64,000 nucleotides of DNA from an uncultured Alphaproteobacteria bacterium (GCA_903821695.1 CAIJLX010000097.1:3542-67541), one strand, 5' to 3'. Shown: positions 739 to 18,980, counted from the stretch's first letter. Notes: generated from the sequence alone by a model not told the origin. Made by a program: numbers and translations.

Positions 739-3700
739 CTACAACAAGAAGTCAGTGGTATTGATTTCTTCTGTGCCTTGTAGTTTGATGCCTAGGTTCA
801 AGTCGCTATTGGAGAGGAACATACCGCCGTCTTCCGTCGTTCTAGCTTGTAGCACGAGTGTATAAGCATCATGCACAACAGTAGAGCTACTAGCACTCAC
901 AACTACGACGTTGGTATAGCCGAAAGCCTTAAGATCGATTTTATCTTCGCCAGCTTTGAAATCACCAATCGCATCAGATGCATCAATGGTGCTACTGCCG
1001 TTGAAAAACACAAATACGTCGTTGCCTTCACCACCCATCAGATAATCTCGGCCCATATCACCCGATACCGTATCGTTGCCTAGATCACCGAAGACCGTGT
1101 CATCTCCCTGACCGCCATAGACTAGGTCATTTCCCTGTCCGCCATGTACGATATCATTCGCTAGGTTACCATTGAGTGTGTCATCGCCGGTATTACCGTT
1201 CATCCTGTCTGTGCCTTTGCCGCCCAACACCGTATCCTCACCCTCGCCGCCATAAACTTCGTCGGCCCCTTGGTTGCCTTGGAGTGCATCATTACCTGCG
1301 TCGCCGGTTAATACGTCTGCGCCCATGTTGCCAGAGAGCACATCGCTATTTCGTGCGCCAAGTAACGTGTCATTACCGATAGTACCGATTAATTCGATGC
1401 TCTCGTCTTCGACATCCTCAGTCACAACGATCACAAAGTCGTGGACAATGGTTAGGCCCTCTGCATCGGTTGCGGTAACCGTGATGGTGTAGCTTGTGAC
1501 ATCGTCGAGTGGTCCGGCCAGCGTCACCTCGCCGGTTTTCGCATCAATGGCGAATAGATTATTCGGGTTCGTTGTCAGGCTATAGGTAAATGTGTCATCC
1601 GCATCCGGATCGATTGCTTGAGCGGCGATACCGACGGACGTGCCGATCTCTGCCTTTTTATCAATGGCGTTCACAACCACATCGCCATCAACCACATCCG
1701 TGGGCGCTTCGTTCACATTCGTCAGGCCGATGGTGAACATCTGTGACGTGCTTTGGTTAGCGGCATCAGTTGCCTTCACGGTGATGTTATGGCTGCTTGC
1801 CGTTTCATAATCGAGAACGCCGGCAACGCTTACCACCCCCGTCGACGCATTAATCGCGAATTTACCATCCGCATTATCCGTCAGGCTATAGGTGAGTGCG
1901 CCTGGCGCAGTGGCGCTGGCTGTAATACCCACGGTCGCGCCAATCGTTGCATCTTCTTTCACACTGTTAACCACAGCATTACCATCCACCAGATTCGTCG
2001 GTGCATTCGGATTGGTAGGCGTTTGATGGATATCGGTAACACCAATGGTGAAGGTTTGTGTCGTAACAAGCCCACCAGCATCTTTTGCTTCCACCGTGAT
2101 CTTATGGCTTGGCGTATTATCCAATGCACCGGCAACTTTTACCACACCGGTGGTGGCATCAATCGCAAACTTACCGACTGCATTATCGGTCAGGCTATAA
2201 GTCAGCGTACCTGCATCCGGATCGGTTGCTTTCGCCGTAATACCCACCACAGTGCCAATCGCCGCACTTTGCGCCACGCTATTTGCTGCAGTATTGCTAT
2301 CCACTAAATTGGTGGGTGCTTCATTGACGTTCGTCACACCAATGGTGAATGTTTGTGTCGTGCTAAGCCCGCCTGCATCCGATTCTTTCACAATAATGCT
2401 CTGGTTTTGTGAAGCTTCATAATCAATTGCGCCAGCAACCGTTACAACACCCGTCGTCGCATTAATAGCAAACTTACCACCCGCATTATCCGCCAAGCTA
2501 TAGGTAAGTGTGCTACCCGCATCCGGATCCGTCGCTTTCGCCGTAACACCAACCACAGTGCCAACAGCAGCATTTTCTGCAACGCTGTTTGTGGCAGTAT
2601 TACTATCCACTAAATTGATTGGTGCTTCATTCACGTTTGTCACGCCAATCGCAAAAGTCTGCGTCGTGCTAAGCCCACCTGCATCCGTTGCCTTAACAAT
2701 AATATTGTGGCTGCTAGCTGTTTCATAATCCAATCCGGCCGAAACAGTCACAACGCCTGTCGTCGTATTAATCACAAAGCGACCACCAGCATTATCCGTC
2801 AGGCTATACGTCAGTGTATTACCCGCATCCGGATCCGTCGCTTTCGCCGTAACACCAACCGCAGTACCAACAGCAGCATTCTCCGCAACAGAGTTCGCAG
2901 CACTGTTGCTGTCGACCAGATTCACTGGTGCTTCATTCACGTTTGTTACGCCGATAGCAAATGTTTGTGTCGTGCTCAACCCACCAGCATCGGTCGCTTT
3001 CACAATAATATTGTGGCTAGCAGCAGTTTCATAATCGAGCGCACCGGCAACCGTAACAACACCAGTCGATGTATTAATCGCAAACTTACCACCAGCATTA
3101 TCGGTGAGGCTATAAGTCAGCGTAGAAGCATCCGTTGCCTGGGCAGTAACCCCTACCGTCGTACCAACAGCAGCATTCTCTGCAACGCTGTTTGTCGCTG
3201 CATTAATATCCACCAAATTCGTTGGGGCACTTGTATCCGCAGTTGGCTGGCCATTCGTCACATCGATATTAAATACTTTCTGGACGCTAAGCCCAGCTGT
3301 ATCCGTTGCTTTTATCGTGATGTTATGGCTAGTCGCCAATTTAGAATCAAATGTGCCAGCTACGCTCACCACACCAGTGGTGGCATCAATCGCAAATTTA
3401 CCACTCGCACTATCAGCCAAACTATAGGTCAGTTTATCACCATCTGGATCAGTCGCACTGGCCGTAATACCAACAAGCGAACCAATCGCTGCTTTCTCAG
3501 AAACACTGTTGAGAGCCGTACTACCATCTATTAAATTAAGCGGTGTAGTATTTGGTTTTGTGTCTTCAGCTGTAACGTTCACGTTGAAAAAGAAGGCAGT
3601 ACCTAAGCCTGTCGAATCAACGGCTTTTACAAGCACCTGCATATTGCCAAGTGCCTCTGGAGTTTTAATCAGGGTAATCACACCCGTATCTGCATCTATG

Positions 3701-6700
3701 CTAAAGTACTTGTTATTTTCAGTATTGCTAAGGCTATATGTTGTTTTTCCGGCACTGCTCTCAGGAGCGAAGGCTGTGACACCAACACGCGTCCCTAAAG
3801 CAGCATTGATTGAAACAGCATTGATCGCTTGATCAGCGTCTTTAAGTAAACCGGCACCATCATTGATATCTGTCAAATTGAGAGTGAATGTTTTAGTGGA
3901 GCTTAACCCCCCTAGGTCCGTTGCTTTTACCGTGATGTTATGGCTGCTCGCAGTTTCAAAATCTAAATCACGGCCAACTTTAATAACACCGGTATTGGCA
4001 TCAATTCTAAAATTCCCTTCCTCATTATTAATGAGGCTGTAAGTAATTCTATCGCCTGCATCAACATCTGTGGCACGTGCCGTAATATTGGTAAAAGCAC
4101 CGACTTGCGCATTTTCAGCAATTACGTTGGCGGTAACGTCTATATCTATAATCTCAGAAGGAGCATGGTTCACAAAAACTGGGCCGGTACTTACAGTTGT
4201 ATTCTGTGTGTGCATTGCTGCAATGTTCTGTGCACCTAACGCGGTTGAACCAATATAAAGATTATCAATATTACCTTCAAACGTACCTTTGATAGTTGGA
4301 TCTACCGTCCAAGGACCCGAGGAACCCACGTGAATCCCATAGGTATTGTTTGGATTAAAGATCGCATCCCCTTGGGCCTTGGTAAAAGACATTGTATAGG
4401 CACTCTTGCCATCAACATAGAAAGTAAACGAATTGTGGCTGACCGTGATGGCAATATCATGCCACTGGTTGTCTGCCAAATTAGTGGTTGGAACAAATCT
4501 GACCGTTTGGCCTACAATACCCACATTCACAGTGTTAGTTGCAGCGGCGAGCGCTACACTCCATAGGCCATGGCTTCCTGCCAAAATCATGCCCCCGTTA
4601 TCAACTTTTGCTGCTTGCATGGAATAGGCCATGGTCAATTCTTGCATGCCACTTAAATCAGGATCATTTTTTACATCGATATAAATATGATCATTATTGG
4701 CACCCAATGAGAGTGCTTTGCCACCATATGGTGTATCAACAAACACAGGTGAGCTCATGCCCACTATCAGGCTTTCGTGGCCGGAAAGGTCGATAAAACG
4801 ACCATCAAAATTCATTTTGACGCCAACTTCATCCTGAATATTAAGTGTGCTTGTCGTTGTACTGCTATGCCCCTTACTATCCGTAACAGTCAGTTTTACT
4901 TCCTGTTCGCCGAGGGTCTTGAAAGTTTTATTTACAGTCACTCCATGTTCTGTAGTGCCATCAGAAAACTTCCAGGTATAAGTGGCGCCATTTAAGTTAA
5001 ACCCTTCTTGCGGCAGTGAAAGGCTTGCATCAAATGTATGTTGGTAATGCTCATTTACTACTTCGGAATGTTGGGTAAAGATAGCGGTTGGATTATTAGC
5101 ATCTGCGGCGGCTACAAATGCGCCTTTATAAGTGCCATCGGCATTCAGCATCGCGGGCACTTTTAAGCTCGCAAAATCCTCTTTCGTGGCATTTTCTGCA
5201 TTTGGGTTCATCAGATAATTATTTGCCGAACCATCACCGATATTATAAACTACGTTACCTTGCCAAATATCAGTATCGGTTCTGGGAGTGCCGTATTTAT
5301 ATGGAAGAATATTGTCTGTAACTGTAACATCGGTTGACCCCTTGTAACCGATGCCGGGGACATATACATCACTAGGATTAACAATGCTGCCTGCATAATG
5401 CAGTATGTTATTGGTTATTACTAAACCCTCTGCGTTACTAACCGAGATAGCATTTGAGTGCTGAGAATTAATCACGTTATTTTCGATCGTAATGTTCTCT
5501 AAGCCATAACGATTTGCCAAAATCCCGTTAGCATCGGGCTGCAGATAATCGCCCCGCATGAAAATCGCTTGTGCGCTGCTGCCTAGATTATCGTAAATGA
5601 AATTACCACGGATAACGACATCTGACGTGTTTTGTATCGCATCTTTTTCAACCCAAAACTGAATAAAGTCAGTGTGAAGTGCCTGAGAGTGGCTCGCATC
5701 CGGCGAATAAAGTGTATTGTTTTCGATCAACACATGTGAAAGATTTGAGCCATAATCAGAGTTATCATTCAGGTTGTCATGATACAGATTATTGATAACA
5801 GTAATGTAGCTCGATGGGCTACTGTTACCAATACCAGTTCCAGTCAAAAAATTATGGAATGTGTTGCCATCTAGCGTAATATGATCCGAGCCCCGGATAT
5901 CGGTACCAGAGATTTGCGCCCGCGCCACCACACCCATTGGCATGTTGCCATCGAGATCACTATTCTTCAGCGTAATATTTGAACTGTTACCAACCGTAAA
6001 GGCAGCACCATAGGCTTGGGTTAAAGGGGTTTCTATTTTTATCGAATCAATCGTAAGATTCTGAACGCCGTTTAAACCGATCTGGTCAAAGATTGCCTGA
6101 TTATGCACATCTTCTGATTTAATCGTCACGGTACTGGTATATGTGTGGTCAGGCTTAACTCCGTAAGGCATATTGAGGCTTCCAAAATTAACCCCCGCTT
6201 TTAACAAAATAGTCTCCCCACCCGTTGCCATTTTCAACGCGCTATTAAGTTCGGCTAATGTCGATACGTGAATCGTACTGCCGACATCAATGGCAAATGT
6301 TTTATCAGTGTGTAAGCCGCCTGCATCGGTTGCCTGCACGGTTATGTTATGTACACCACTGCTCGTTAGTGGCCCCGCAACGGTAACCACACCCGTTGAA
6401 GAATTGATCGCGAATCTGCCGCCATCATTATCGCTGAGGCTATACTTAATGCTATCGCCGGCATTGGTATCAATCGCATTCGCAGTAATGCCCACCGTCG
6501 TACCAACAGCAGCATCTTGTTTCACACTACTCGCGCTGGTGTTTGTATCCGTCAAATTAATCGGTGTCGCATTTGAGTTATTTACACCAACATGGAATGT
6601 TTGAGTGGTGCTAAGCCCACCAGCATCGGTTGCCTTTACGATAATATCATGCTCAAGCCCATCCAATGCTTTCGCAACAGTTACCACGCCGCTCGTTGCG

Positions 6701-7173
6701 CTGATCTTAAATAGGCCGCCTGCATCATCGGTTAGGCTGTAAGTTATTTTATCACCTGCATCCGGATCAGTTGCTTTCGCTGTAATGCCAACCACCGAAT
6801 TAATAGCCGCAGTTTGCGAAACGGTCGTGGCGGGATTTGTATCTACTATCATCGTGGGGGCTTCATTGACATTTACAATACCAATCGTAAACACTTGGGT
6901 GGTGCTAAGGCCAGTGGAATCTACTGCTTTCACCGTGATGCTTTTACTTGCACCCGCTTCATAATTCATGGCCGCTGCTGTTGTAACAACTCCAGTATCA
7001 GCATTAATAGCAAAAAGATTGCCGGGATTGCTGCTCAAACTATAGGTAATTTTATTGCCATCCGCGTCAGTTGCCTTTGCAACAACCCCAACCGCCGTCC
7101 CTACCACAACATTTTCTAAAACGCTGTTTATAGCGCTATCAATATCGACTAGATTAGTTGGAGCTGTTCCCAT
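739..7173 (-). CDS. giant mosaic RTX adhesin (cadherin-like repeats + beta-helix + PKD + LamG + RTX; presumed T1SS substrate)
   Basis: 2144-aa ORF without an N-terminal signal peptide. About 12 cadherin-like ~100-aa repeats carry the motif NVNEAP.NLVD...TYSL.DNAGGKFAI...TGVVTVAG.LDYE...H.I.VKATD.GGLST. The central part has parallel beta-helix-like repeats (NSSNITLKNSDLDGN, IENNTLYS, IRGNFIYDN, IENNVINS, ITNNILHY). A PKD-like module (YTWKFSDGTTEHG...KLTVTDSKGHS) and a LamG/ConA-like module (NQWHDIAITVSHNSFTFYVDGK...GNIDNLYIG) follow. The gene ends in GGxGxD nonapeptide repeats and a 92-aa C-terminal tail. Confidence 0.9.
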   Translation of the reverse strand: MGTAPTNLVDIDSAINSVLENVVVGTAVGVVAKATDADGNKITYSLSSNPGNLFAINADTGVVTTAAAMNYEAGASKSITVKAVDSTGLSTTQVFTIGIVNVNEAPTMIVDTNPATTVSQTAAINSVVGITAKATDPDAGDKITYSLTDDAGGLFKISATSGVVTVAKALDGLEHDIIVKATDAGGLSTTQTFHVGVNNSNATPINLTDTNTSASSVKQDAAVGTTVGITANAIDTNAGDSIKYSLSDNDGGRFAINSSTGVVTVAGPLTSSGVHNITVQATDAGGLHTDKTFAIDVGSTIHVSTLAELNSALKMATGGETILLKAGVNFGSLNMPYGVKPDHTYTSTVTIKSEDVHNQAIFDQIGLNGVQNLTIDSIKIETPLTQAYGAAFTVGNSSNITLKNSDLDGNMPMGVVARAQISGTDIRGSDHITLDGNTFHNFLTGTGIGNSSPSSYITVINNLYHDNLNDNSDYGSNLSHVLIENNTLYSPDASHSQALHTDFIQFWVEKDAIQNTSDVVIRGNFIYDNLGSSAQAIFMRGDYLQPDANGILANRYGLENITIENNVINSQHSNAISVSNAEGLVITNNILHYAGSIVNPSDVYVPGIGYKGSTDVTVTDNILPYKYGTPRTDTDIWQGNVVYNIGDGSANNYLMNPNAENATKEDFASLKVPAMLNADGTYKGAFVAAADANNPTAIFTQHSEVVNEHYQHTFDASLSLPQEGFNLNGATYTWKFSDGTTEHGVTVNKTFKTLGEQEVKLTVTDSKGHSSTTTSTLNIQDEVGVKMNFDGRFIDLSGHESLIVGMSSPVFVDTPYGGKALSLGANNDHIYIDVKNDPDLSGMQELTMAYSMQAAKVDNGGMILAGSHGLWSVALAAATNTVNVGIVGQTVRFVPTTNLADNQWHDIAITVSHNSFTFYVDGKSAYTMSFTKAQGDAIFNPNNTYGIHVGSSGPWTVDPTIKGTFEGNIDNLYIGSTALGAQNIAAMHTQNTTVSTGPVFVNHAPSEIIDIDVTANVIAENAQVGAFTNITARATDVDAGDRITYSLINNEEGNFRIDANTGVIKVGRDLDFETASSHNITVKATDLGGLSSTKTFTLNLTDINDGAGLLKDADQAINAVSINAALGTRVGVTAFAPESSAGKTTYSLSNTENNKYFSIDADTGVITLIKTPEALGNMQVLVKAVDSTGLGTAFFFNVNVTAEDTKPNTTPLNLIDGSTALNSVSEKAAIGSLVGITASATDPDGDKLTYSLADSASGKFAIDATTGVVSVAGTFDSKLATSHNITIKATDTAGLSVQKVFNIDVTNGQPTADTSAPTNLVDINAATNSVAENAAVGTTVGVTAQATDASTLTYSLTDNAGGKFAINTSTGVVTVAGALDYETAASHNIIVKATDAGGLSTTQTFAIGVTNVNEAPVNLVDSNSAANSVAENAAVGTAVGVTAKATDPDAGNTLTYSLTDNAGGRFVINTTTGVVTVSAGLDYETASSHNIIVKATDAGGLSTTQTFAIGVTNVNEAPINLVDSNTATNSVAENAAVGTVVGVTAKATDPDAGSTLTYSLADNAGGKFAINATTGVVTVAGAIDYEASQNQSIIVKESDAGGLSTTQTFTIGVTNVNEAPTNLVDSNTAANSVAQSAAIGTVVGITAKATDPDAGTLTYSLTDNAVGKFAIDATTGVVKVAGALDNTPSHKITVEAKDAGGLVTTQTFTIGVTDIHQTPTNPNAPTNLVDGNAVVNSVKEDATIGATVGITASATAPGALTYSLTDNADGKFAINASTGVVSVAGVLDYETASSHNITVKATDAANQSTSQMFTIGLTNVNEAPTDVVDGDVVVNAIDKKAEIGTSVGIAAQAIDPDADDTFTYSLTTNPNNLFAIDAKTGEVTLAGPLDDVTSYTITVTATDAEGLTIVHDFVIVVTEDVEDESIELIGTIGNDTLLGARNSDVLSGNMGADVLTGDAGNDALQGNQGADEVYGGEGEDTVLGGKGTDRMNGNTGDDTLNGNLANDIVHGGQGNDLVYGGQGDDTVFGDLGNDTVSGDMGRDYLMGGEGNDVFVFFNGSSTIDASDAIGDFKAGEDKIDLKAFGYTNVVVVSASSSTVVHDAYTLVLQARTTEDGGMFLSNSDLNLGIKLQGTEEINTTDFLL
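1018..1396 (-). repeat. RTX (hemolysin-type Ca-binding) nonapeptide repeat block inside the adhesin gene
   Basis: 126 aa, GNDTLLGARNSDVLSGNMGADVLTGDAGNDALQGNQGADEVYGGEGEDTVLGGKGTDRMNGNTGDDTLNGN...GGQGNDLVYGGQGDDTVFGDLGNDTVSGDMGRDYLMGGEGND. This is roughly 14 GGxGxDxxx-type units. Confidence 0.85.
1700..3240 (-). repeat. tandem ~303-306-bp near-identical DNA repeats (about 5 cadherin-like units)
   Basis: The motif GGTGCTTCATTCACGTTTGT(C/T)ACGCC recurs at about 2320, 2622 and 2926. The protein units ...VTNVNEAP(V/I/T)NLVDSN.A.NSVAENAAVGT.VGVTAKATDPDAG.TLTYSL.DNAGGKFAIN..TGVVTV... are almost identical. Boundaries are approximate. Confidence 0.75.
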
Positions 7174-7475
7174 GGTATCCCCTTATGTTTTAAATGTAGT
7201 TAAAATTTTAACTAAACTTAATTAATAGTTAATATACCGCACTCAGATGAGCTTGGCAACACCTTTCATTATAGAGCAGAAAGGTTAAGGATTGGTAAAG
7301 CGCCCGAAGAAATGCCAATACTGCAAAAATAAAATTCCCCTCACATAACAGCATGTTATGGCAAACTCTTGACAAAACAATTACTCGATATTTAGTTGGT
7401 GGCCAGATTTGGTTGAAAACCCTTCCGTTGAAATCTTAATTTTTTCAAACAGCAAAAACTGGGCGAACCACTCTA

Positions 7476-8138
7476 TTACATATCCAGAAAATCGACTTGC
7501 CCGGTCGAAAGATTTAATACGGCACCAAGAATTTTCATTTCTTTTTTCTGCACCAAATCTTCAATTACTTGGCTGGAATGTGAAAGTTGGCTTACGGAAG
7601 CGCGCACGTTTGCTTCCACTGCACGCTTCATTTTCTGTGTCATCGTTAATTTTTTCATTTTTGCGATTGGCAAAATATGGGGCTTGATGCGGTTTACGAT
7701 TGCAAAAATATTGGCGGAGGAAATTTCTTCTGCATCTTGAATATGGTTAAGAGTCGCACGTATGGCGCCGCATTGTGTATGTCCCATCACCAACACCAGT
7801 CTGGTACCAAATAAATTCGCGGCAAATTCTACGCTGCCTACTAGCGAAGGCGCAACTACGTTTCCGGCCACACGAATCACAAATAAATCGCCGAGATCTT
7901 GATCAAAAATCATTTCAACGGGCGCTCTCGAATCCGAACAACACAGAACAATCGCTTTTGGAAATTGCCCGGTCTTTGCAAAATCTTGCAATTTTTTAAG
8001 TGAGGATTTTGAAGATTGCAGTGATTTCCCTTGCAGAAAACGTCCATTCCCCGCTTTTAATTCTTTCAAAATCGCATTGTGGCTTTTTTGTTTTTTCATA
8101 TACGGTAACTTTTTGTTATTGCTCAGAGAAGGTGACAC
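7476..8138 (-). CDS. beta-class carbonic anhydrase
   Basis: Hallmark beta-CA motifs are present: VLCCSDSRAP, FVIRVAGN and VMGHTQCGAI. The track start is a GTG at 8138; an ATG alternative (MKKQKSH...) lies at 8099. Confidence 0.85.
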   Translation of the reverse strand: MSPSLSNNKKLPYMKKQKSHNAILKELKAGNGRFLQGKSLQSSKSSLKKLQDFAKTGQFPKAIVLCCSDSRAPVEMIFDQDLGDLFVIRVAGNVVAPSLVGSVEFAANLFGTRLVLVMGHTQCGAIRATLNHIQDAEEISSANIFAIVNRIKPHILPIAKMKKLTMTQKMKRAVEANVRASVSQLSHSSQVIEDLVQKKEMKILGAVLNLSTGQVDFLDM

Positions 8139-8233
8139 ATCCCCTTCTCTAGCATAGGCGAAGAAAAAATCTACTTCCTCCTTTCATGGCAGTTATACTT
8201 TCCATTTCGCCAGTGCTGTGCTAGCACCAGCAT

Positions 8234-8656
8234 ATGCCTTTGAAACATAGCGTCATTTTACGAACGGTCGCGCGCGGAATGATTCCGCTGATCGTACTAT
8301 TTGCCTTTTACTTACAGATACATGGCGAGCGCAGTGCCGGAGGCGGTTTCCAGGCTGGCGTATTAATGGCGGCGGCCTTTATGCTCTATGCGCTGGTATT
8401 CGGATTAGCCGACATGCTAGAAATTTTTCCGCTGCATTGGCAAAAAATTGGCGCTTGCGCGGGCGTGATGATCTACGCTGGTGTTGGTTTATTGGGATTA
8501 GTCCTCGGTGGCAGATTTTTAGATTATGATGCATTTGGTCGCACTGGCCCGGAAGGCCAGTTGATCGGAATTTTCTTGGTGGAGCTGGGTATAGGCACCA
8601 CCGTTTTTTCCGTGATCCTGATGTTGTTTTGCCTGTTTGCCGAAAGAAAAAGATGA
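8234..8656 (+). CDS. mrpB: Mrp/Mnh antiporter subunit B-like membrane protein
   Basis: 140 aa. ILRTVARGMIPLIVLFAFYLQIHGE.SAGGGFQAGV is the MnhB-domain signature. The protein has 4 TM segments. Confidence 0.8.
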   Translation: MPLKHSVILRTVARGMIPLIVLFAFYLQIHGERSAGGGFQAGVLMAAAFMLYALVFGLADMLEIFPLHWQKIGACAGVMIYAGVGLLGLVLGGRFLDYDAFGRTGPEGQLIGIFLVELGIGTTVFSVILMLFCLFAERKR

Positions 8657-8991
8657 TTCTGTTTACGCATTACCCCTACCTCGCAAGTTTTATACTGATG
8701 GCAATTGGGCTTTACGCGATCATCACCCGCCGCAGCCTAACGAAAAAATTAATTGGTCTCGCGTTATTCCAAACATCCGCTTTGCTTTTCTTTATCGCAA
8801 CTGGTGTTGTCAAAGGTGGCTCTTCGCCCATTTATAAAGCCGGCGTTACGCTTTATCACAACCCATTGCCACATGTGTTAATGCTCACTGCTATCGTCGT
8901 CGGGCTTGCCACACTTTCAGTTGGCCTCGCCATCGCCGTGCGGATCAAAGAGCACTATAAAACTACCGATGAAATTGAGATTCTGAAATGA
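8653..8991 (+). CDS. mrpC: Mrp/Mnh subunit C (NuoK-like)
   Basis: The ATG at 8653 overlaps the mrpB stop (ATGA). About 112 aa with 3 TM segments and a NuoK/MnhC-like sequence (LIGLALFQTSALLFFIA, HNPLPHVLMLTAIVVG). Confidence 0.8.
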   Translation: MILFTHYPYLASFILMAIGLYAIITRRSLTKKLIGLALFQTSALLFFIATGVVKGGSSPIYKAGVTLYHNPLPHVLMLTAIVVGLATLSVGLAIAVRIKEHYKTTDEIEILK

Positions 8992-10463
8992 ATCACTTTC
9001 TTGCTTTGCTGGTCGCCCTACCGTTATTTGCCGCACCATTAATTGCGCTTATCCAAAAACGTCACGCTGCATGGGTGATTACTTTTGTGACACTCATCAT
9101 TCTGTTATTTCTCAGTCTGTTCATTAGCAGCAACATGCTCGACCATGGCTTGCTCACCTATGACATGGGCAATTGGGCGCCACCATTTGGAATTGAATAT
9201 CATGTAGATGGTTTAAACGCCGCTATATTAGTGCTCATCAGCTTGATGGCAGTTGTCATCATGCCTTTTGCATTGCCGCAATATCTCAAAGAAGTTCCTG
9301 CCGAAAAACAGTCCCTCGCCTATGCGATATTTGTGCTGTGCGTTGCCGGTTTGCTTGGCATGACCATCACACATGATTTGTTTAATATGTATGTATTCCT
9401 CGAAATTTCTTCACTCGCTACATACACGCTGATTAGCCTTGGTAACAGCAAGCGCGCGCCGGTGGCAGGTTTTGAATATTTGATTTTGGGCAGCATTGGC
9501 GCCACTTTTTATCTCATCGGCTTGGGCTTTTTATATATGGCAACCGGCACATTGAACCTGACCGATATGTCGATTCTTCTGCAGCCTTTGGCCGATAGCA
9601 AATTAGTGCGCGCGGGCTTAGGCTTCTTGGTGCTCGGCTTATTACTCAAAGCTGCGGTATTTCCACTCCATATCTGGCTTGTGCAGTCTTATACTAATGC
9701 GCCTACTTTATTTGCCGCCTTCCTCTCTGCCACCGCAACGAAAGTATATCTCTATCTGTTAATGCGGATTATTTTCGGCATGTTTGGTGTCGGTATTGCA
9801 CTCAATATTTTACCTATCGGCCCGATATTGATGGTTCTTTCTGCGGGTGCGGTCATCCTCGGTTCTCTTGCTGCATTTATACAAAAAGATGTGAAGCACA
9901 TGCTCGCTTATTCCAGCATCGCGCAAATTGGTTTTATCGTGTTTGGGTTTAGTCTTGGTACCTCTGCTGGTCTAGCGGCTGCATTGCTTCACTTGCTTTT
10001 TCATGCCCCAGCAAAAGCAGGTTTATTTCTCTGTGTTGCCAATGTCGAAAAACAACGTGGTGGCTCTACTCTCACCCATTTCCGTAATATCGGAAATCGT
10101 ATGCCGATCACGTCTGCTGCCTTTGTCATTTGTGGCTTAAGCCTGATCGGCATTCCGCTCACGGCTGGTTTTTTAAGCAAATGGTTGATGCTTTCTGCAT
10201 TGATGCAAGCCGGTCAATGGCCAGCATTTATATTGGTGCTGTCCGGCTCGCTCTTCACAGTCGCTTATATCGGCAAAGTGTTTGAAGTGATGTTCTACCG
10301 CAAAGAAATTGAGGTGACGCATCCGCGTGGCGACGCGCCATGGCCGCTATTACTGCCACTAATTCTGCTTTCATTCCTGTGTTTATATTTCGGCATGTTC
10401 AGCGAAGATGTCATGCTGGTAACACGCCAAGCAACGAACTTATTTTTCCGGGCGGGTGATTAA
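8988..10463 (+). CDS. mrpD: antiporter-like subunit 1 (MrpD/NuoN/NuoM family, proton-conducting membrane transporter)
   Basis: 491 aa and polytopic, with typical PF00361-type motifs (FLEISSLATYTLI, AAVFPLHIWLVQSY, MLAYSSIAQIGFI). The start overlaps the mrpC stop (ATGA). Confidence 0.8.
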   Translation: MNHFLALLVALPLFAAPLIALIQKRHAAWVITFVTLIILLFLSLFISSNMLDHGLLTYDMGNWAPPFGIEYHVDGLNAAILVLISLMAVVIMPFALPQYLKEVPAEKQSLAYAIFVLCVAGLLGMTITHDLFNMYVFLEISSLATYTLISLGNSKRAPVAGFEYLILGSIGATFYLIGLGFLYMATGTLNLTDMSILLQPLADSKLVRAGLGFLVLGLLLKAAVFPLHIWLVQSYTNAPTLFAAFLSATATKVYLYLLMRIIFGMFGVGIALNILPIGPILMVLSAGAVILGSLAAFIQKDVKHMLAYSSIAQIGFIVFGFSLGTSAGLAAALLHLLFHAPAKAGLFLCVANVEKQRGGSTLTHFRNIGNRMPITSAAFVICGLSLIGIPLTAGFLSKWLMLSALMQAGQWPAFILVLSGSLFTVAYIGKVFEVMFYRKEIEVTHPRGDAPWPLLLPLILLSFLCLYFGMFSEDVMLVTRQATNLFFRAGD

Positions 10464-11947
10464 TGGATTCATTACTCAGCACCCCCGATTATATCATTTA
10501 TTATTTGTTTGCGTTGCCGCTTCTCGCCGTTTTCTGCTCCTTCGCTATTCGTGAGGATCGGTTACAAACGAGCGTGATCGGCCTCATCGGCTGCGCCCTC
10601 TTTGCCTTTCTGATTTATTTTTCTACTGTATTATTATGGCCGCTCTTTGCAATGGAGCAGGCATTCAAAATTTGGCATTTCAACCTGCTGCCACGTGTGC
10701 CGATTAACTTTGTGATTGAACCCTGGGGCACGTTGTTTGCATTGATGGTGTGTTTCCTGTGGCCGCTTACCACGCTGTATTCACATGGTTATCTTAAGGC
10801 AACGAAGTCCAAACATCGCAATCGGTTCCACGCGTGTTTTGCGCTTGCCATTTTTTCGGTGCTCGGTGTCGCGTTTTCCGGCAACCTTATTACACTGTTT
10901 ATTTTTTATGAGTTGCTAACACTCGCCACTTATCCGCTTATTACCCACAATCAAACGCCCGAAGCCATTCGTGCGGGGCGTATTTATTTGGCCTATTTGC
11001 TCGGCACTTCATTCTTGCTCTTCATGCCTGCGATTATTTATACCGCACAAGCAGCCAGCACTTTCAGCTTCCTGCCAAGTGGCATTTTGGAAGGGAACAT
11101 CACCCCCTTCGCCGCCGGTATTTTATTGCTTGTCTATGCTTATGGCATTGGCAAATGTGCCTTAATGCCACTGCATCGCTGGCTGCCGGAAGCGATGGTT
11201 GCACCAGCACCTGTCAGCGCATTGCTGCATGCCGTTGCGGTAGTAAAAGGTGGTGTATTCGCTTTCATTAAAATTGCCGTCTATGTATTTGGCGCAGAGT
11301 TTCTGTTCCAAATTGCTGCCACACACTGGCTGGGCATCATCTGTTCATTGACGGTCATTCTCGGCTCTATTCAAGCCTTGCGCACCAATCATATTAAAAC
11401 TTTGCTCGCTTATTCCACCATCAGCCAACTCGCCACTATTTTGATGTTAGCTACCATGGCAACTGCCCCTGCATTGCAAGCTGCAGCAATATTGCTCATC
11501 ACCCACGCACTTGGCAAAATAACGTTATTCTTCGTCGCCGGCGCCATTTATGCCACAACACATTTCACCACCATTGAACAATGCCAAGGCCTTGCAAGGC
11601 GCATGCCCTACACCTTCGCTGCATTGCTCATTGCCGCAATGACGATGATTGGCATGCCGCCAACACTTGGGCTGCTTTCGAAATGGATGATGTTCTCGGC
11701 GGCGCTTGATAGTATGAATATTTGGATTTGCTTTACGTTGTTTGTAAGCACTCTGCTCAATGCGTTTTATTTCTCGCGTTGGGTGTTTATTTGCTGCAAA
11801 AAGCCGGAGCCAGAAAAATTGGTGCGTCGACAAGATGCACCATGGTCCATGCGTGCGGTAGTGCTTATTAGTGCGGCTGCTTGCGTTATTTTGTTTTTTT
11901 ATCCTTACCCTGTGCTACTTCTGGCACGTCAATTTTCGGTGTTATAA
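10463..11947 (+). CDS. antiporter-like subunit 2 (MrpD/NuoM family)
   Basis: 494 aa. Motifs FYELLTLATYPLI, ALMPLHRWLPEAMVAPAPVSALLHAVAVVKGG and LLAYSTISQL. The start overlaps the upstream stop (TAATG). Confidence 0.8.
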   Translation: MDSLLSTPDYIIYYLFALPLLAVFCSFAIREDRLQTSVIGLIGCALFAFLIYFSTVLLWPLFAMEQAFKIWHFNLLPRVPINFVIEPWGTLFALMVCFLWPLTTLYSHGYLKATKSKHRNRFHACFALAIFSVLGVAFSGNLITLFIFYELLTLATYPLITHNQTPEAIRAGRIYLAYLLGTSFLLFMPAIIYTAQAASTFSFLPSGILEGNITPFAAGILLLVYAYGIGKCALMPLHRWLPEAMVAPAPVSALLHAVAVVKGGVFAFIKIAVYVFGAEFLFQIAATHWLGIICSLTVILGSIQALRTNHIKTLLAYSTISQLATILMLATMATAPALQAAAILLITHALGKITLFFVAGAIYATTHFTTIEQCQGLARRMPYTFAALLIAAMTMIGMPPTLGLLSKWMMFSAALDSMNIWICFTLFVSTLLNAFYFSRWVFICCKKPEPEKLVRRQDAPWSMRAVVLISAAACVILFFYPYPVLLLARQFSVL

Positions 11948-11950
11948 CAT

Positions 11951-12082
11951 ATGATGAATCTCGCTCTTACTGCCATTATCGGTTTCTGCGCTACCGCAGG
12001 TGCCATCGGTTTTACCCATGTGCTGGGTCGCTTCTTGCGTTATCCGGAAAGCTATTATCGCAAGAGACGTAACGATGGATGA
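11951..12082 (+). CDS. unannotated 43-codon ORF encoding a single-TM peptide inside the Mrp-like operon
   Basis: ATGATG at 11951 lies 3 nt after the upstream TAA. It translates to MMNLALTAIIGFCATAGAIGFTHVLGRFLRYPESYYRKRRNDG, a hydrophobic helix with a basic tail. Its TGA (12080-12082) overlaps the ATG (12075) of the next gene (GATGGATGA). The ORF is below the track's length cutoff. Confidence 0.4.
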   Translation: MMNLALTAIIGFCATAGAIGFTHVLGRFLRYPESYYRKRRNDG

Positions 12083-13778
12083 AATCATCTCCCTACCGCC
12101 GTTCCTGCCGCTGTTCATTGGCGGTTTCATGCTGGTGTTCCTGCCCGCTTCCGGCCAGCGCACGATCTTAATCGCCGCTCCGTTCATTGCCTTAATGGCA
12201 GTCTTCAGCATGAATGCAGAGAGTATTTTCCCGCTCAGCATTGCCGGCACCACGGTGCAACTTTTAAACACGCAGGAATATAGCTTAGTCTTCGGCATGG
12301 CGTTTTGCCTAGCCATGATTGGCGCTGGTTTATTCGGCTTTCATTACGCGAGACCGAAAGAAATGGCCGCATCGCTCATTGTCGCCAGCGGTGGCGTCGG
12401 CATCGTATTTGCCGGCGATTTAATCAGCCTGTTCTTCTTCTGGGAAGTGTTGATGTGCGCTTCGGTCTATCTCATCTATATCGGCAATACCAAAAATTCC
12501 GAGTTCGCCGCCTGGCGTTATTTGATCATGCATTTGCTCGGCAGCACCTTCTTGCTCGCGGGTATTGCCGGCACCATTATGGATAGCGGTATCGCCGCCT
12601 TTCCAGCCGTACAGTTTGGCTGGTCATTGCCCCACACTGCAACCGAATGGTCGGCATGGTTATTGTTACTTGGCATCATGGTGAATCTCGCCGCGCCACC
12701 ATTTTCAGCGTGGTTGCCGGATAGTTATCCTGCCGCATCGCCGTTTGGCATGGTGGTGCTTTCCATCTTCACCACTAAATCGGCGTTATTTGTATTGATG
12801 CAAATCTTCGCGGGTTCCGCACCGCTCATTCCGATTGGCCTTTGCATGTTGCTCTATGGCGGGATTATGGCATTGATGCAAAATCTTCTGCGCCGCCATT
12901 TGGCTTATTGCATGATTGCGCAATTGGGCGTGATGGTGATGGCCGTTGGTCTCGGCAGTGAAGCCGCCCTCGCCGGCACCGCGATTCTTGCCTTCTGCCA
13001 TATTGGCTATAACGGATTGCTCACCAGCTCCGCCGGTAGCATCATCCGCCAGACCGGTAAATTCCGCATGGGCGATCTCGGTGGCCTATGGCGGCAAATG
13101 CCTGTCACTTCCGGTGCCATTGTTTTGGGCGCATTATCAATGGCGGCGCTCCCCATCACCGGCGCTTACATCGGCAAACATTTGATCAGTGATGCACTTT
13201 CTGCAATCGAACAACCGCTCTATTTATTTCTCTTCATCTGCGGCTCTTCACTCGCCACCTATTTAATGTTCCCCTGGTTCGCCCTCTCCGGCAAAAGCAA
13301 GACGACTAAATCCACGGAAGTCGGCTTGGTTATGCAGTTCAGCTATTGCATTTTCGCTTTTATGGCCTTGAGCCCCGGCCTTTACCCCGGCTCGCTCACC
13401 TTGCTCATGCCGCATCATGAGGCAATGGCGAATTACACACTTCTCTCGGTATTCAGCCAACTCTTAATGATCGCGTTCGCTAGCGGCGGCTTCTTCCTGA
13501 TGTTGCCTTGGCTCAAGCGCCAAAAGGGCATCCTCCTTGATATGGATTGGTTTTATCGCGTGCTCATCCCCCATTGCCTCAAACTCGCCAACCATTTTTA
13601 TACCCTCGCAGAAGCCCGAGCACTAAAATGGTGGGGCCATTGTTTTTCCTGGGCAAAAACCTATTCTCTACGCCTCTTCTCCGAATCCGGCACCCTAACC
13701 AAGCCGCAGCCATTGAGCATCAATGCTGCACTGACGGTGACTATCTTATTGGTGCTTCTGCTAGTGCTTTATCTATAG
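12075..13778 (+). CDS. antiporter-like subunit 3 (MrpA/NuoL-like, with C-terminal amphipathic helix + terminal TM)
   Basis: Track ORF 12000..13778. The likely start is the ATG at 12075 (MDEIISLPPFLPLF...). PF00361-like core (FFFWEVLMCASVYLIY, PPFSAWLPDSYPAASP, LAYCMIAQLGVM). The C-terminus has a ~60-aa amphipathic stretch followed by a final TM (INAALTVTILLVLLLVLYL), reminiscent of the NuoL/MrpA lateral helix. Confidence 0.7.
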   Translation: MDEIISLPPFLPLFIGGFMLVFLPASGQRTILIAAPFIALMAVFSMNAESIFPLSIAGTTVQLLNTQEYSLVFGMAFCLAMIGAGLFGFHYARPKEMAASLIVASGGVGIVFAGDLISLFFFWEVLMCASVYLIYIGNTKNSEFAAWRYLIMHLLGSTFLLAGIAGTIMDSGIAAFPAVQFGWSLPHTATEWSAWLLLLGIMVNLAAPPFSAWLPDSYPAASPFGMVVLSIFTTKSALFVLMQIFAGSAPLIPIGLCMLLYGGIMALMQNLLRRHLAYCMIAQLGVMVMAVGLGSEAALAGTAILAFCHIGYNGLLTSSAGSIIRQTGKFRMGDLGGLWRQMPVTSGAIVLGALSMAALPITGAYIGKHLISDALSAIEQPLYLFLFICGSSLATYLMFPWFALSGKSKTTKSTEVGLVMQFSYCIFAFMALSPGLYPGSLTLLMPHHEAMANYTLLSVFSQLLMIAFASGGFFLMLPWLKRQKGILLDMDWFYRVLIPHCLKLANHFYTLAEARALKWWGHCFSWAKTYSLRLFSESGTLTKPQPLSINAALTVTILLVLLLVLYL

Positions 13779-13830: not shown

Positions 13831-14583
13831 ATGTCCACGATCACACTTTCCAAGCAGCAAAACATTCGCGATACTGTCTTCAATCAGGAGGCACCACAAG
13901 ATGCTTTCCGCTTTGATGCCAAGGTCGCGAAAGTATTCGACGACATGGTCAGCCGCTCCGTTCCATTTTACGACGAGATGCAGCGCATGACGACCGAGCT
14001 AGCGCGGGATTTCGCGCAGCCCAATACCAATCTTTATGATATTGGCTGCTCAACCGGCACGACCTTACTGGCACTCGATCATTTCATCGACCCAACCGTA
14101 AAATTCATCGGCATCGATAACTCCCCCGAAATGCTTATTGAGGCTCAGAAAAAAGTTTTGGCCACTGGCGCCAAACGCGTCATCCAATTTGAAAAATCAG
14201 ATATGCATGGCGAAATTCACCTCGAAAATGCGAGCGTGATTACGTTATTACTGACATTACAGTTCGTGCGTCCTCTGCACCGCGAACGCGTGATGCGCTC
14301 TATTTTCGAAGGACTCAATGAAAATGGCTGCCTTATTTTGATCGAAAAATTGACCAGCGAAGATACGGTTTTTAACCGCCTGTTCATCGATCATTATTAT
14401 GATTTTAAACGTGGCAATGGTTATTCCGAAACCGAGATAGCGAAAAAACGTGAAGCGCTGGAAAATGTGCTCATCCCATATCGCATGGAAGAAAACTTTG
14501 AGCTCTTGCGCTGGGCCGGCTTCCGCCGTATAGAGGTATTCTTCCGTTGGTATAATTTTTGCGGAATCATCGCCGTAAAATAA
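13831..14583 (+). CDS. cmoA: carboxy-S-adenosyl-L-methionine synthase CmoA family
   Basis: Full-length resemblance to E. coli CmoA as I remember it: [35 protein letters not shown] and [24 protein letters not shown]. The ATG at 13831 is preferred over the track's GTG at 13810. Confidence 0.8.
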
Positions 14584-14591
14584 GAGGTTTT

Positions 14592-15317
14592 ATGAAACAG
14601 ACTATGATCGCCATCGGTAATTTTTTCTTCAAATGGCGCAATTATCTGTTTCCCTTCTTTGTGATTGGTCTCTTCGCTCTGCGCTCACCAAAGCCGGTTT
14701 TTGCTGGCTCCGAACAGCTTGAAGTCATTAAAGATTTTATTGGCTTTGCGATTGTGCTTCTCGGTCTTGTCATCCGCGGCACCGTTATTGGTTTTGCCTA
14801 TATCAAACGTGGTGGCATGAATAAAAAAGTCTATGCCGACAAACTAGTCACTGCCGGCATGTTCACCCTCTGCCGCAATCCACTTTATCTTGGCAATATG
14901 CTTACTATCATCGGCATTTTCATCGTCCACGGCGATCTGTTGATTATGTCTATCGGCATCCTGGCTTATAGCTTTATTTATCAATGCATCATTTTCGCAG
15001 AAGAAGCCTATTTGGAAAATAAATTCGGCAAAAGCTTCACCAAATATTGCGAGAAAACACCGCGTTGGCTGCCCGTATTAACCCGCTTCAACCTCGCCAC
15101 CAAAGACATGGCATTTGATTGGAAGCGCGTGATTGTGAAAGACTACACCACCATCGCCACCAGCCTTGTTGCTTGCGCTGCGATTGAGTTTTATGAAGAC
15201 TGGGTTGGGGTATTAGATAGGGGTGAAAGCCTTACCCTCGGTTTTATCGCCGCCGTTGGGCTAGTGGTGGCCGGCATTAGCCTCGCTAAGCGCAAAGGTT
15301 ACCTGAAGCTCGCTTAA
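14592..15317 (+). CDS. membrane methyltransferase, ICMT/PEMT family
   Basis: The ATG at 14592 follows AAGAGG. The protein is multi-TM. LVTAGMFTLCRNPLYLGNML and AEEAYLENKFGKSFTKYCEKTPRWLP match the isoprenylcysteine carboxyl / phospholipid methyltransferase family pattern. Confidence 0.7.
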   Translation: MKQTMIAIGNFFFKWRNYLFPFFVIGLFALRSPKPVFAGSEQLEVIKDFIGFAIVLLGLVIRGTVIGFAYIKRGGMNKKVYADKLVTAGMFTLCRNPLYLGNMLTIIGIFIVHGDLLIMSIGILAYSFIYQCIIFAEEAYLENKFGKSFTKYCEKTPRWLPVLTRFNLATKDMAFDWKRVIVKDYTTIATSLVACAAIEFYEDWVGVLDRGESLTLGFIAAVGLVVAGISLAKRKGYLKLA

Positions 15318-15360
15318 AATTCCTTATATTTCAGGGCCCTAACTTTTTTTGGTGGAAACG

Positions 15361-15388
15361 GTTGTAACCTCATTCCTCCGGCTTATAT
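15361..15388 (+). promoter_or_regulatory. candidate RpoH (sigma-32)-type promoter of dnaKJ
   Basis: gTTG-N17-CTTATAT (15361-15364 / 15382-15388), about 37 nt upstream of the dnaK ATG. It matches the alphaproteobacterial heat-shock consensus CTTG-N17-CYTATNT in all but one base. Confidence 0.45.
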
Positions 15389-15424
15389 ATCCTTCATACT
15401 CTTAAACTAAAAAAGGATACGAAT

Positions 15425-17347
<1,923 letters not shown>

Positions 17348-17371
17348 GATTCCGCTCTAGAAACTTTCAGC

Positions 17372-18541
17372 ATGTCTGCAAAGCGCGATTATTATGAAAT
17401 TTTAGGCCAGCGCAAAGGCGCGAACGCGGAGGAATTGAAAAAAGCCTACCGCAAACTCGCCATGCAATATCACCCGGATCGCAACCCGGGCGATAAGGAA
17501 GCTGAACAAAAATTCAAAGAAATCAGCGAAGCCTATGACATTTTAAAAGATGATCAAAAACGCGCGGCCTATGACCGCTATGGCCATGCCGCATTTGATT
17601 TCGGCGGCGGTCCTGGTGCTGGTCGCGGTGGTGCTGCAGGCGGGTTTGATTTCTCCGGCGGCTTCTCCGATATTTTCGAAGATTTATTCGGTGAGTTCAT
17701 GGGTGGCAATGCTGGCGCTGGTCAACGTGGTGCCCGCCAACAACAAGTCAACCGCGGGAATGATCTCCGCTATAATCTTGAAGTCTCGTTAGAAGAAGCA
17801 TTTAAAGGCGATCAAAAAACGATTCGCGTCAACGCCGCTTCTGGTTGCGATACCTGCAAAGGCAGCGGTAGTGCTGATGGTTCAGCCCCCGAAACTTGCA
17901 GCTATTGCCAAGGCAGCGGTAAAGTGCGGATGCAACAAGGCTTCTTCACCATCGAGCGCACCTGCACTCAATGTTCGGGCGTCGGCACAGTAATCAAAAC
18001 TCCGTGCAAATCATGCAAAGGTACGGGTCGCTTGCGCAAAGAACGCACGTTAAATGTGACCATTCCACCCGGTGTGGATGAAGGCACGCGCATTCGCTTA
18101 ACGGGTGAAGGCGAAGCCGGCATGCGCGGCGGACCACCCGGCGATTTGTATATTTTCGTTTCCGTCAGGCAGCACATGTTCTTCCAGCGCGAAGGCCAAG
18201 ACATCCACTGCAAAGTGCCCGTCAAAATGACCACGGCTGCTCTCGGCGGAAATATCGAAGTACCCACCATCGACGGCACACGCGCGAAATTAGTCATCCC
18301 CGCTGGCGCACAAACCGGCAACCAATTCCGCCTACGTGGTAAAGGCATGACCAATGTACGCAGCAAAGGTACGCGTGGCGATATGTATGTGCAGGCAATT
18401 GTGGAAACACCCGTCAGCCTCACTAAACAGCAACGCGAATTACTGCAGCGTTTTGACGAAGAAGCAAAAGATGGCTCCAGCCCCGAATCCGAAAGCTTCT
18501 TCAAAAAAGCCAAAGAAATGTGGGATGACTTAAAGGATTGA
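17372..18541 (+). CDS. dnaJ: co-chaperone DnaJ
   Basis: J-domain (YHPDRNPGD), a G/F-rich linker and four CxxCxGxG zinc-finger motifs. Confidence 0.97.
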
Positions 18542-18545
18542 GTTT

Positions 18546-18980
18546 TTAGTTTCGCTTACTAGCGAAGAATTCTTTCAGTAACACACCCGCCGCATCGGCT
18601 TCTATTCCTGAAAATATTTCCGGCCGGTGGTGACATGTGGGTTGATTAAAAATCCGCGGCCCATTTTCAACACCGCCACCTTTGCTATCGCTCGCCGCAT
18701 AAATTAACCGCCGCACTCGCGCAAACGCAAGTGCTTGCGCACACATAGCACAAGGCTCAAGCGTCACAATCAAATCACAATCGACTAAATAATTTGTTTT
18801 CAGCGTTGCGCATGCCGCACGTATTGCGAGCATTTCCGCATGTGCAGTTGGATCATTACGGATGATGGTTTCATTGTGAGCCGATGCGATAATTTTATTA
18901 TCGCGCACAACCACCGCTCCCACCGGCACTTCACCTGCTGCTGCTGCCATCTGTGCTTGTTCTAACGCAAACTTCATCAT
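18546..18980 (-). CDS. tadA: tRNA adenosine(34) deaminase TadA
   Basis: 144 aa with CMP/dCMP deaminase zinc motifs HAEMLAI and PCAMCAQA. The start overlaps the stop of the upstream 1237-aa gene (ATGA). Confidence 0.85.
   Translation of the reverse strand: MMKFALEQAQMAAAAGEVPVGAVVVRDNKIIASAHNETIIRNDPTAHAEMLAIRAACATLKTNYLVDCDLIVTLEPCAMCAQALAFARVRRLIYAASDSKGGGVENGPRIFNQPTCHHRPEIFSGIEADAAGVLLKEFFASKRN

Follow-up and report, generated by a model that had tools for sequence, protein, structure and literature searches.

The stretch analysed here, which we call the window, comprises 64,000 nucleotides of a contig from an uncultured Alphaproteobacteria bacterium (GCA_903821695.1, CAIJLX010000097.1:3542-67541). 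Positions 8234-13778 of its plus strand carry a tightly packed operon of six genes in the order B-C-D1-D2-x-D3, as established from the list of open reading frames (ORFs) and from Pfam and NCBIfam scans. Comparison with related loci indicates that this operon derives from a ten-gene Mrp cluster by reduction. We consider it somewhat more probable than the alternatives (roughly 0.55-0.6) that it encodes part of an ordinary Mrp antiporter whose missing partner genes lie at another locus, rather than a truly minimal complex. The six genes are as follows.

8234-8656, plus strand: B, an MrpB/MnhB-type protein of 140 residues with a GGGF motif (PF04039, E-value 4.5e-25; NF009162, 145.7 bits against a cut-off of 120).
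8653-8991, plus strand: C, an MrpC/MnhC/NuoK-type protein of 112 residues (PF00420, E-value 1.8e-22; NF005624, 132.8 bits against a cut-off of 95).
8988-10463, plus strand: D1, an antiporter-like subunit of the MrpD/MbhH/NuoN type, 491 residues (PF00361).
10463-11947, plus strand: D2, an antiporter-like subunit of 494 residues (PF00361, with a weak Proton_antipo_N match).
11951-12082, plus strand: x, a membrane protein of 43 residues with one transmembrane (TM) helix and a basic tail containing a YY motif.
12075-13778, plus strand: D3, a divergent antiporter-like subunit of 567 residues (PF00361) with TM15, a lateral helix and a terminal TM helix.

The original prediction for this DNA had described B, C and three PF00361 subunits. 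These ORFs and their families are confirmed by Pfam and NCBIfam, and the sixth gene, x, had been overlooked. The translational coupling that it described can be read at all three junctions: ATGA overlaps between B and C and between C and D1, and TAATG between D1 and D2. We take ATG 12075 as the start of D3, because the homologues of D3 are 567 residues long; the longest ORF would begin at GTG 12000.

Related loci were collected from the genomic context of D3 homologues and from at least 80 loci of species-representative genomes, found by a profile search with a D3 alignment; the species-representative matches listed are distant relatives, with D3 identities of 34-41%. A profile search of metagenome contigs with D3 returned three loci, all of them irrelevant. 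The ORFs of each locus were classified with phmmer and with hidden Markov models (HMMs) of E, F, G and DUF4040, each trained on 51-66 seed proteins, those of E, F and G on 56-66.

The full form of the cluster is MnhE-MrpF-MnhG-DUF4040-MnhB-MnhC-D1-D2-x-D3, where the DUF4040 protein corresponds to MbhD/MbhE and is the equivalent of the MrpA C-terminal domain. It is intact, with its genes contiguous, in at least 64 loci with enough flanking sequence, which among the matches listed come from Alpha-, Beta- and Gammaproteobacteria, Verrucomicrobiota, Desulfobacterota and others. One full-type locus, L053 from a Thiobacillus metagenome-assembled genome (MAG), has a second partial Mrp-like set with D2-, D1-, E-, F- and G-like ORFs 3′ of the ten-gene cluster.

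The reduced form, which has B-C-D1-D2-x-D3 only, occurs in at least nine loci with at least 6.5 kb of upstream sequence: the window, L001, L094, L004, L096, L097, L006, L011 (an Alphaproteobacteria MAG) and L023 (a Rickettsiales-labelled MAG). Their flanks consist of unrelated housekeeping genes (rpe, aroA, ahpC/trxB, ccmAB and PBP1). Directly 5′ of B is a divergent gene for a β-class carbonic anhydrase (CA) in the window, and rpe, aroA, ahpC or a methyltransferase gene in relatives. The 64-kb window and 10 kb around each of the nine reduced loci contain no match to the HMMs for E, F and G, for which the lowest E-value was 0.14, and none to that for DUF4040, with a lowest E-value of 0.93; the same models recover their targets at E < 1e-5 in 65-66 other loci. 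The original prediction placed cmoA directly after the cluster, with no MrpE, F or G gene; the gene scans agree on cmoA, and the HMMs agree on E, F and G throughout the window. It did not mention the DUF4040 protein, which is missing from the locus as well. Beyond cmoA lie genes for a PEMT-like methyltransferase and then DnaK.

The genes that remain are one-to-one orthologues of the B-C-D1-D2-x-D3 block of the full-type clusters, with the same order and the same overlaps, including that of x with the start of D3. Identity to the full-type orthologues ranges from 34-40% for D3 up to 49-58% for C. A neighbour-joining tree of D3, which is distance-based and carries no support values, gathers the reduced loci in one cluster; the full-type locus L020, their nearest full-type relative, falls inside this cluster as sister to L011/L013. 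Within the reduced group, D1 of L023 is divided between two overlapping ORFs (6683-7525 and 7500-8177, together spanning 6683-8177), which represents a frameshift, a pseudogene or an assembly error.

The evidence says that the reduced cluster is functional and, on codon-level comparison, under strong purifying selection, because protein lengths are conserved, the ratio of nonsynonymous to synonymous substitutions (dN/dS) is far below 1 and the proton-path residues are retained. Over seven genomes the lengths are 140 (B), 112 (C), 486-491 (D1), 492-494 (D2) and 562-569 (D3) residues. By the Nei-Gojobori method, dN/dS lies in the range 0.04-0.18 over the six genes; comparison of B, C, D1, D2 and D3 with L001, L094 and L004 gives 0.04-0.11 (B 0.05-0.09, C 0.04-0.07); dS is near saturation, so that the ratios are approximate, yet far below 1. 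We also compared the alignment columns with at least 90% invariance among full-type clusters. The window clade keeps 89% of these in B, 97% in C, 86% in D1, 77% in D2 and 64% in D3. In a separate comparison with the full-type baseline, divergence grows steadily away from the B/C end (C 0.86, B 0.82, D1 0.80, D2 0.74 and D3 0.61). Since B and C are the least diverged subunits and D3 is the most diverged, nothing in the sequences suggests that the B/C end has lost an interface.

The three large subunits resemble different members of the antiporter-like family. For D1 the best sequence matches in the PDB are MbsH (6u8y_H), MbhH (6cfw_H) and MrpD (7qru_D), the last at 1e-49. For D2 the top two are MbhH (6cfw_H) and MbsH (6u8y_H); next come MrpA N-terminal domains together with NdhF and NuoL. 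D2 has no lateral helix and bears the MrpA-type histidine in TM8. D3 is the most divergent of the three, and its best NCBIfam model, NF009310, falls short of the cut-off of 564 bits with a score of 390. An AlphaFold2 model of D3, made with a 65-sequence alignment, has a mean predicted local distance difference test (pLDDT) score of 90.7 and a predicted template modelling (pTM) score of 0.87. The model has a 14-helix core, TM15, an unbroken helix at residues 490-535 and a terminal TM helix at 547-566. A Foldseek search of the PDB with this model gave MrpA of Bacillus pseudofirmus (7qru_A) as the top match, followed by NuoL/ND5 chains, over about 610-670 columns. The model and the MrpA/NuoL matches thus support the NuoL/MrpA-like C-terminal helix and terminal TM helix that had been read from the sequence. 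The traits of the MrpA N-terminal domain are therefore divided over two proteins, with the TM8 histidine in D2 and the lateral helix and anchoring TM helix in D3.

Proton-path residues were read from a joint alignment of 234 D-type sequences, in which the canonical residues of D1, D2 and D3 are the same in reduced and full clusters. D1 has the TM5 glutamate and the lysines of TM7, TM8 and TM12. D2 has the TM5 glutamate, the TM7 lysine, a histidine and a lysine in TM8, and the TM12 lysine; the TM8 histidine is limited to D2. D3 has the TM5 glutamate and the TM8 and TM12 lysines, with asparagine at the TM7 lysine position. This asparagine, N204 in the window protein (codon at about 12684-12686), replaces the lysine of the Lys/Glu pair in 87 of the 88 D3 sequences, and the TM5 glutamate is invariant. 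Because the asparagine is found across the entire D3 family, the alignment identifies it as a family-wide departure from the MrpA/MrpD/NuoL/M/N pattern and not as a trait of the reduced form.

Gene x is encoded from ATG 11951 to TGA 12082, inside the 128-bp “gap” between D2 and D3, and its product has the sequence MMNLALTAIIGFCATAGAIGFTHVLGRFLRYPESYYRKRRNDG. It begins 3 nucleotides past the D2 stop codon and overlaps the D3 start codon region by 8 nucleotides. A homologous small ORF terminates within the first codons of D3 in virtually every locus with a D2-D3 junction; examples across L001-L090 are L008 9754-10011, L009 9808-10008 and L006 6891-7124. In full-type clusters x has 66-93 residues, with two TM helices, a loop of the form His-x-His-Phe-Gly-(Ile/Val)-Asp-Gly and the C-terminal motif AK-LG--LKR-D-YYD. 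In the window clade the first, N-terminal TM helix has been lost and the second TM helix and the tail are kept. The dN/dS of x is 0.07-0.18 against L001 and L094.

No Pfam or NCBIfam model matched x, and a search of PDB sequences gave noise only, with no relative. There are 578 homologues of x in the database, nearly all of them unnamed or called “hypothetical protein”, with a few evidently spurious automatic names; none of the 578 carries a functional annotation. The gene also occurs in a different setting. L010 (2433-16622) is a complex-I-like cluster that encodes NuoD, a NuoG of the molybdopterin/formate dehydrogenase type, NuoI, NuoJ, NuoK and a short NuoL-like protein, followed by x (80 residues), a D3-like subunit of 622 residues and three more PF00361 proteins, giving five antiporter-like genes in all. 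Since x precedes the D3-like subunit here too, x and D3 look like a two-gene module that also exists outside Mrp clusters. The conservation of x between D2 and D3 in essentially every cluster, together with its place beside the D3-like subunit in L010, means that x is probably an overlooked structural subunit.

These observations can be accommodated by a scheme in which the six membrane proteins of the operon would be subunits of a CPA3 (Mrp-type) cation/proton antiporter, and specifically of the “split MrpA” kind found in Alphaproteobacteria. The ancestor would have had the order E-F-G-DUF4040-B-C-D1-D2-x-D3, and in the window clade the first four genes would no longer stand beside the rest. 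Protons would run down the proton-motive force through the three antiporter-like subunits by way of the conserved Glu/Lys/His chains, and the lateral helix of D3 may clamp these three subunits together. Energy would travel along a central polar axis and drive the expulsion of a cation, either Na+ or K+, at the C/B end. The DUF4040, E, F and G subunits would most likely still be produced from a separate locus, and the presumed role of this genetically dispersed Mrp antiporter would be pH and cation homeostasis. The β-CA would be a housekeeping neighbour, neither a subunit nor a coupled partner.

The scheme can be compared with the 2.2-Å structure of the Bacillus complex (7QRU), in which the MrpA C-terminal domain wraps halfway around MrpC, and MrpB lines MrpC, the same MrpA domain, F and G (PMC9568556). 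The Na+ tunnel in that structure is lined by B, C and the MrpA C-terminal domain; two glutamates of MrpA (Glu687 and Glu780) and Asp38 of MrpF are proposed as Na+ sites, with Phe41 in the GGGF motif of MrpB as the gate (PMC9568556). We favour a dispersed antiporter over a minimal complex because B and C are unrelaxed and because there is a precedent in Rickettsiales, whose Mrp gene sets are not in one operon (Ehrlichia chaffeensis ECH_0466-0469, 0179, 0328, 0474 and 0944; Orientia mnhE/G/mbhE/B/C; PMC8395091, PMC2408715). Ehrlichia chaffeensis has one locus with F (89 residues), G (99), DUF4040 (181), B (139) and C (111), and its three D genes (491, 489 and 519 residues) and E (163 residues) are each solitary (PMC8395091, Table 1). 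In Orientia, mnhE is far from mnhG-mbhE-mnhB-mnhC (PMC2408715). These sets resemble the window in families and sizes (B 139-140, C 111-112 and D about 490 residues, with one longer D), and the window B and C exceed the NCBIfam equivalog cut-offs of models with exactly those Rickettsiales sizes. They differ in what has stayed together: in Ehrlichia F-G-DUF4040-B-C are together and the D genes are scattered, whereas in the window B-C-D-D-x-D are together and the small subunits are missing at the locus.

Several points weigh against the scheme above. The E, F, G and DUF4040 genes are found neither in the window nor within 10 kb of the nine reduced loci. As the ten genes are contiguous in the full-type loci, of which there are at least 64, a split of the gene set is unusual outside Rickettsiales. 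Both x, with its first TM helix lost, and D3, with 64% of its invariant columns, are remodelled in the window clade, so that the complex is changed in some way. Finally, three genomes keep the CA gene next to the operon although their genes farther upstream differ, which leaves a small chance of a local functional tie to CA.

A possible, though doubtful, alternative is that the complex is truly minimal: E, F, G and DUF4040 would have been lost from the genome, and B-C-D1-D2-x-D3 would act alone or docked to an unrelated partner. Such an assembly might be a proton-coupled translocator without both Na+-loading sites of the Bacillus Mrp, with an altered ion path or substrate, a suggestion that we regard as tentative. 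Its favourable points are that nine independent loci, with D3 identities down to 34-45%, are without the four genes within up to 10 kb (over 64 kb in the window), that all six genes are under purifying selection, that x and D3 are remodelled in the window clade, and that the sodium sites sit on the missing subunits (PMC9568556). On the other hand, B and C are unrelaxed even though most of their protein contacts would be gone, and Rickettsiales show that the gene set can be dispersed without loss. In Bacillus Mrp, as far as is known, all subunits except perhaps E are required for activity and assembly. It is rather unlikely that the operon specifies a self-sufficient minimal Mrp-derived ion translocator, with x as a core subunit and no E, F, G or DUF4040 anywhere in the genomes of the clade. 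If it did, this would be the smallest natural assembly of complex-I-type antiporter-like subunits, and a different cation path or coupling partner would be implied.

The original prediction suggested that the locus may be a reduced cation/proton-translocating complex with a functional link to the interconversion of CO2 and bicarbonate. The first part is borne out locally, in that E, F and G are missing and the operon is a reduced ten-gene form; the link to CO2 is not. The relevant features upstream of the operon are these.

7476-8096, minus strand: gene for a β-class CA of 206 residues, the divergent neighbour of the operon (PF00484, E-value 6e-39).
8198-8207, plus strand: upstream element CTTTCCATTT, 27-36 nucleotides before the mrpB ATG and conserved in the window, L001, L094 and L004.
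8218-8227, plus strand: palindrome GTGCTAGCAC, just before the mrpB ATG.
8219-8226, plus strand: 8-bp core of the palindrome, TGCTAGCA, 8-15 nucleotides before the mrpB ATG and invariant in four relatives, including L004, which has no CA.

The CA is indeed a divergently transcribed β-CA with intact CSDSR and HTQCG motifs, as had been predicted: the translation and a regular-expression search show the Cys-His-Cys zinc ligands and the Asp-Arg dyad, and the PF00484 match is full-length. It is a soluble enzyme with no TM segment and no extra domain, 83% identical to the CA of L001 and 93% identical to that of L094. Its start is most likely ATG 8096, judging by homologues of 207-209 residues, and the gap between the CA gene and mrpB, given earlier as 95 bp, is therefore 95-137 bp depending on the start chosen. 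GC content is slightly lower in the CA region (0.39-0.42, against 0.46-0.54); the difference is too small to diagnose horizontal transfer of the region.

We surveyed all ORFs of 98 sequence sources for CA genes by homology search and an active-site regular expression. A β-CA lies within 10 kb of the operon in only three of the 98: the window, L001 (D3 80% identical) and L094 (D3 77% identical). There is none near the operon in L004, L096, L097, L006, L011 or L023, or in any of the full-type loci. L004 (D3 66% identical) shares the downstream synteny of cmoA, PEMT, dnaK and dnaJ, and has rpe and exoD upstream and no CA; in L096, L097 and L006 aroA is immediately 5′ of the operon. Co-occurrence of the CA with this operon layout, which the original prediction had proposed to survey, does not extend beyond the two closest relatives, L001 and L094. 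Adjacency that is not conserved is one of the two observations that the prediction had named as counting against it; the other, E, F and G genes at a different place in the genome, is made plausible by published precedent (PMC8395091, PMC2408715).

In L094 a TMEM175-family (PF06736) putative cation-channel gene (4218-4850, minus strand) lies between the CA gene and mrpB, co-oriented with the CA gene. About 90 bp 5′ of mrpB are conserved between L094 and the window despite the different divergent gene.

It is very improbable, and a matter of analogy with DabAB or NDH-1MS/CupA, that the CA and the proton-conducting PF00361 subunits form an energised system for CO2 hydration or bicarbonate. Coupling of PF00361 subunits to CA-like proteins does occur in the DAB and CUP systems, and we keep the idea above zero because the CA has stayed divergently adjacent to the operon in three genomes (the window, L001 and L094) with different genes beyond it (an RTX adhesin, TetR and a phosphate ATP-binding-cassette permease). 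However, the CA is absent from the other reduced and full-type loci, is parted from the operon by the TMEM175 gene in L094, and is divergent rather than co-transcribed with the operon. In DAB and NDH-1MS the CA-like subunit (DabA or CupA/B) is a dedicated one, encoded alongside its PF00361 partner, and DabA belongs to a different, large family (PF10070), whereas the CA here is an ordinary soluble enzyme of PF00484. No match to PF10070 came up among the 18 window proteins scanned, and there is no Cup-type or NDH-1 core gene at the locus. The conserved upstream elements also persist in L004. We therefore judge the CA to be, as far as sequence can tell, an incidental housekeeping neighbour and not part of the transporter.

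The predicted 10-bp palindrome is present before the mrpB ATG, and its occurrence is not above chance: its 8-bp core is found once in the window against 1.33 expected. It appears to be meaningful only through its conserved position in relatives, and it is not present where mrpB directly follows aroA. The CTTTCCATTT element is possibly part of a promoter or leader. Because these motifs are kept in the CA-less L004, they would belong to the leader or promoter of the operon itself and not to shared control of CA and mrp. The palindrome as a shared operator was rejected on these grounds: a core at chance frequency, its retention in L004 and its absence behind aroA. Scans for promoter and terminator consensus sequences gave nothing above shuffled expectation, with no sigma-70-like site in the divergent gap.

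That the operon is a decaying, non-functional remnant in a genome under reduction, for which one could cite the loss of four upstream genes from the locus, relatives in assemblies that look host-associated (by inference only) and the divided D1 of L023, is effectively refuted by the selection analysis, which found six intact ORFs of conserved length with low dN/dS, and by the retention of every catalytic residue and of translational coupling.

The wider context bears on the origin of the clade. The closest named relatives of the window DnaK are from Rhodospirillales-type Alphaproteobacteria, with about 78-80% identity. L096 carries a gene-transfer-agent-like cluster at 14100-19750 (portal, S78 protease, capsid, head-tail connector, gp17, DUF2460 and phiJL001 Gp84/BR0599); such clusters are typical of Alphaproteobacteria, and its presence supports an alphaproteobacterial origin. 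L005 (GCA_016307145.1, JADMIO012611360.1) is a close relative of the operon on a short contig, with a D3 65% identical to that of the window; its accession, in an assembly with contig numbers that reach the millions, is the only basis for the suggestion of a bacterial symbiont or contaminant in a eukaryotic genome project. A canonical nuoH gene lies two genes 5′ of mrpB, away from any nuo operon, in L096 (752-1795, minus strand) and L097 (951-2027, minus strand), which suggests that respiratory-complex genes are scattered in these genomes. NuoH was considered as a new partner for the complex and rejected, as it is canonical (NF004745, 520 bits against a cut-off of 450) and absent elsewhere, including the window locus.

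Two other large genes of the window may be mentioned. On the minus strand at 739-7173 is a gene for a protein of 2144 residues with many cadherin/VCBS-like repeats of about 100 residues (...NEAP.NLVD...), a central β-helix-like region and a C-terminal run of RTX-type GGxGxD repeats, which is probably a secreted giant adhesin. At 18977-22690, also on the minus strand, is a gene for a protein without a Pfam match that adjoins a tadA-like deaminase gene and dnaJ in all close relatives; the protein has 1237-1284 residues, and its counterparts are L001 16846-20697, L004 16918-20772 and L094 15746-19480.

We compared the locus with systems already described. Its closest counterpart is the ten-gene split-MrpA cluster, with which it shares an orthologous B-C-D1-D2-x-D3 block and the same key residues, including the TM7 asparagine of D3. 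It differs in having no E-F-G-DUF4040 5′ of B, a shorter x (43 residues, compared with 66-86) and an unusually diverged D3. The ten-gene cluster belongs with the irregular clusters that Ito et al. (2017) call “Group 3”; their review describes such irregular clusters and no form without E-G. The canonical seven-subunit Mrp complexes (Bacillus pseudofirmus 7QRU, Anoxybacillus 6Z16 and Dietzia 7D3U) have equivalents of the MrpB, MrpC and MrpD found here, and also share the MrpA-type histidine switch (in D2), the lateral helix (in D3), the GGGF motif of MrpB and the PLP..L.LTAIV motif of MrpC. In contrast to these, the window has three antiporter-like subunits instead of two, and the extra subunit x. 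D2 and D3 share the functions of MrpA between them, joined in the full type by a separate DUF4040 protein, and the window locus is without E, F, G and the MrpA C-terminal domain.

Among the archaeal MBH and MBS complexes (MbhA-H, MbsH/H′), the order MbhA-H is mirrored by the full-type order E-F-G-MbhD/E-B-C-D, and MbsH and MbhH are the best solved-structure matches of D1 and D2. Unlike these complexes, the window has no hydrogenase or redox module of the NuoB/C/D/H/I type and no MbhA-E equivalents. The resemblance to DAB (DabA/DabB, MpsAB) and to NDH-1MS (CupA/B with NdhD3/F3) lies in a PF00361 protein near a zinc active site of the β-CA type; the difference is that the CA here is a divergent PF00484 enzyme whose association with the operon is not conserved, and that B and C have no part in DAB. 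Taken together, gene content and orthology place the locus with the ten-gene split-MrpA cluster, as a variant in reduced or dispersed form, and not as a complete Mrp operon or a DAB/CUP system, because its B, C, D and MrpA N-terminal components are present and E, F, G and the MrpA C-terminal domain are missing locally.

On either of the two leading explanations, a dispersed antiporter or a minimal complex, x is a conserved family without a Pfam or NCBIfam model or functional annotation. If the small subunits are encoded elsewhere in the genome, the value of the analysis lies in corrections to annotation, namely gene x, the start of D3 at ATG 12075 and the lack of any basis for a CO2-concentrating role. 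If they are truly absent, the operon would represent a natural minimal version of the Mrp/complex-I membrane machinery, and would show which parts of it are dispensable for ion translocation.

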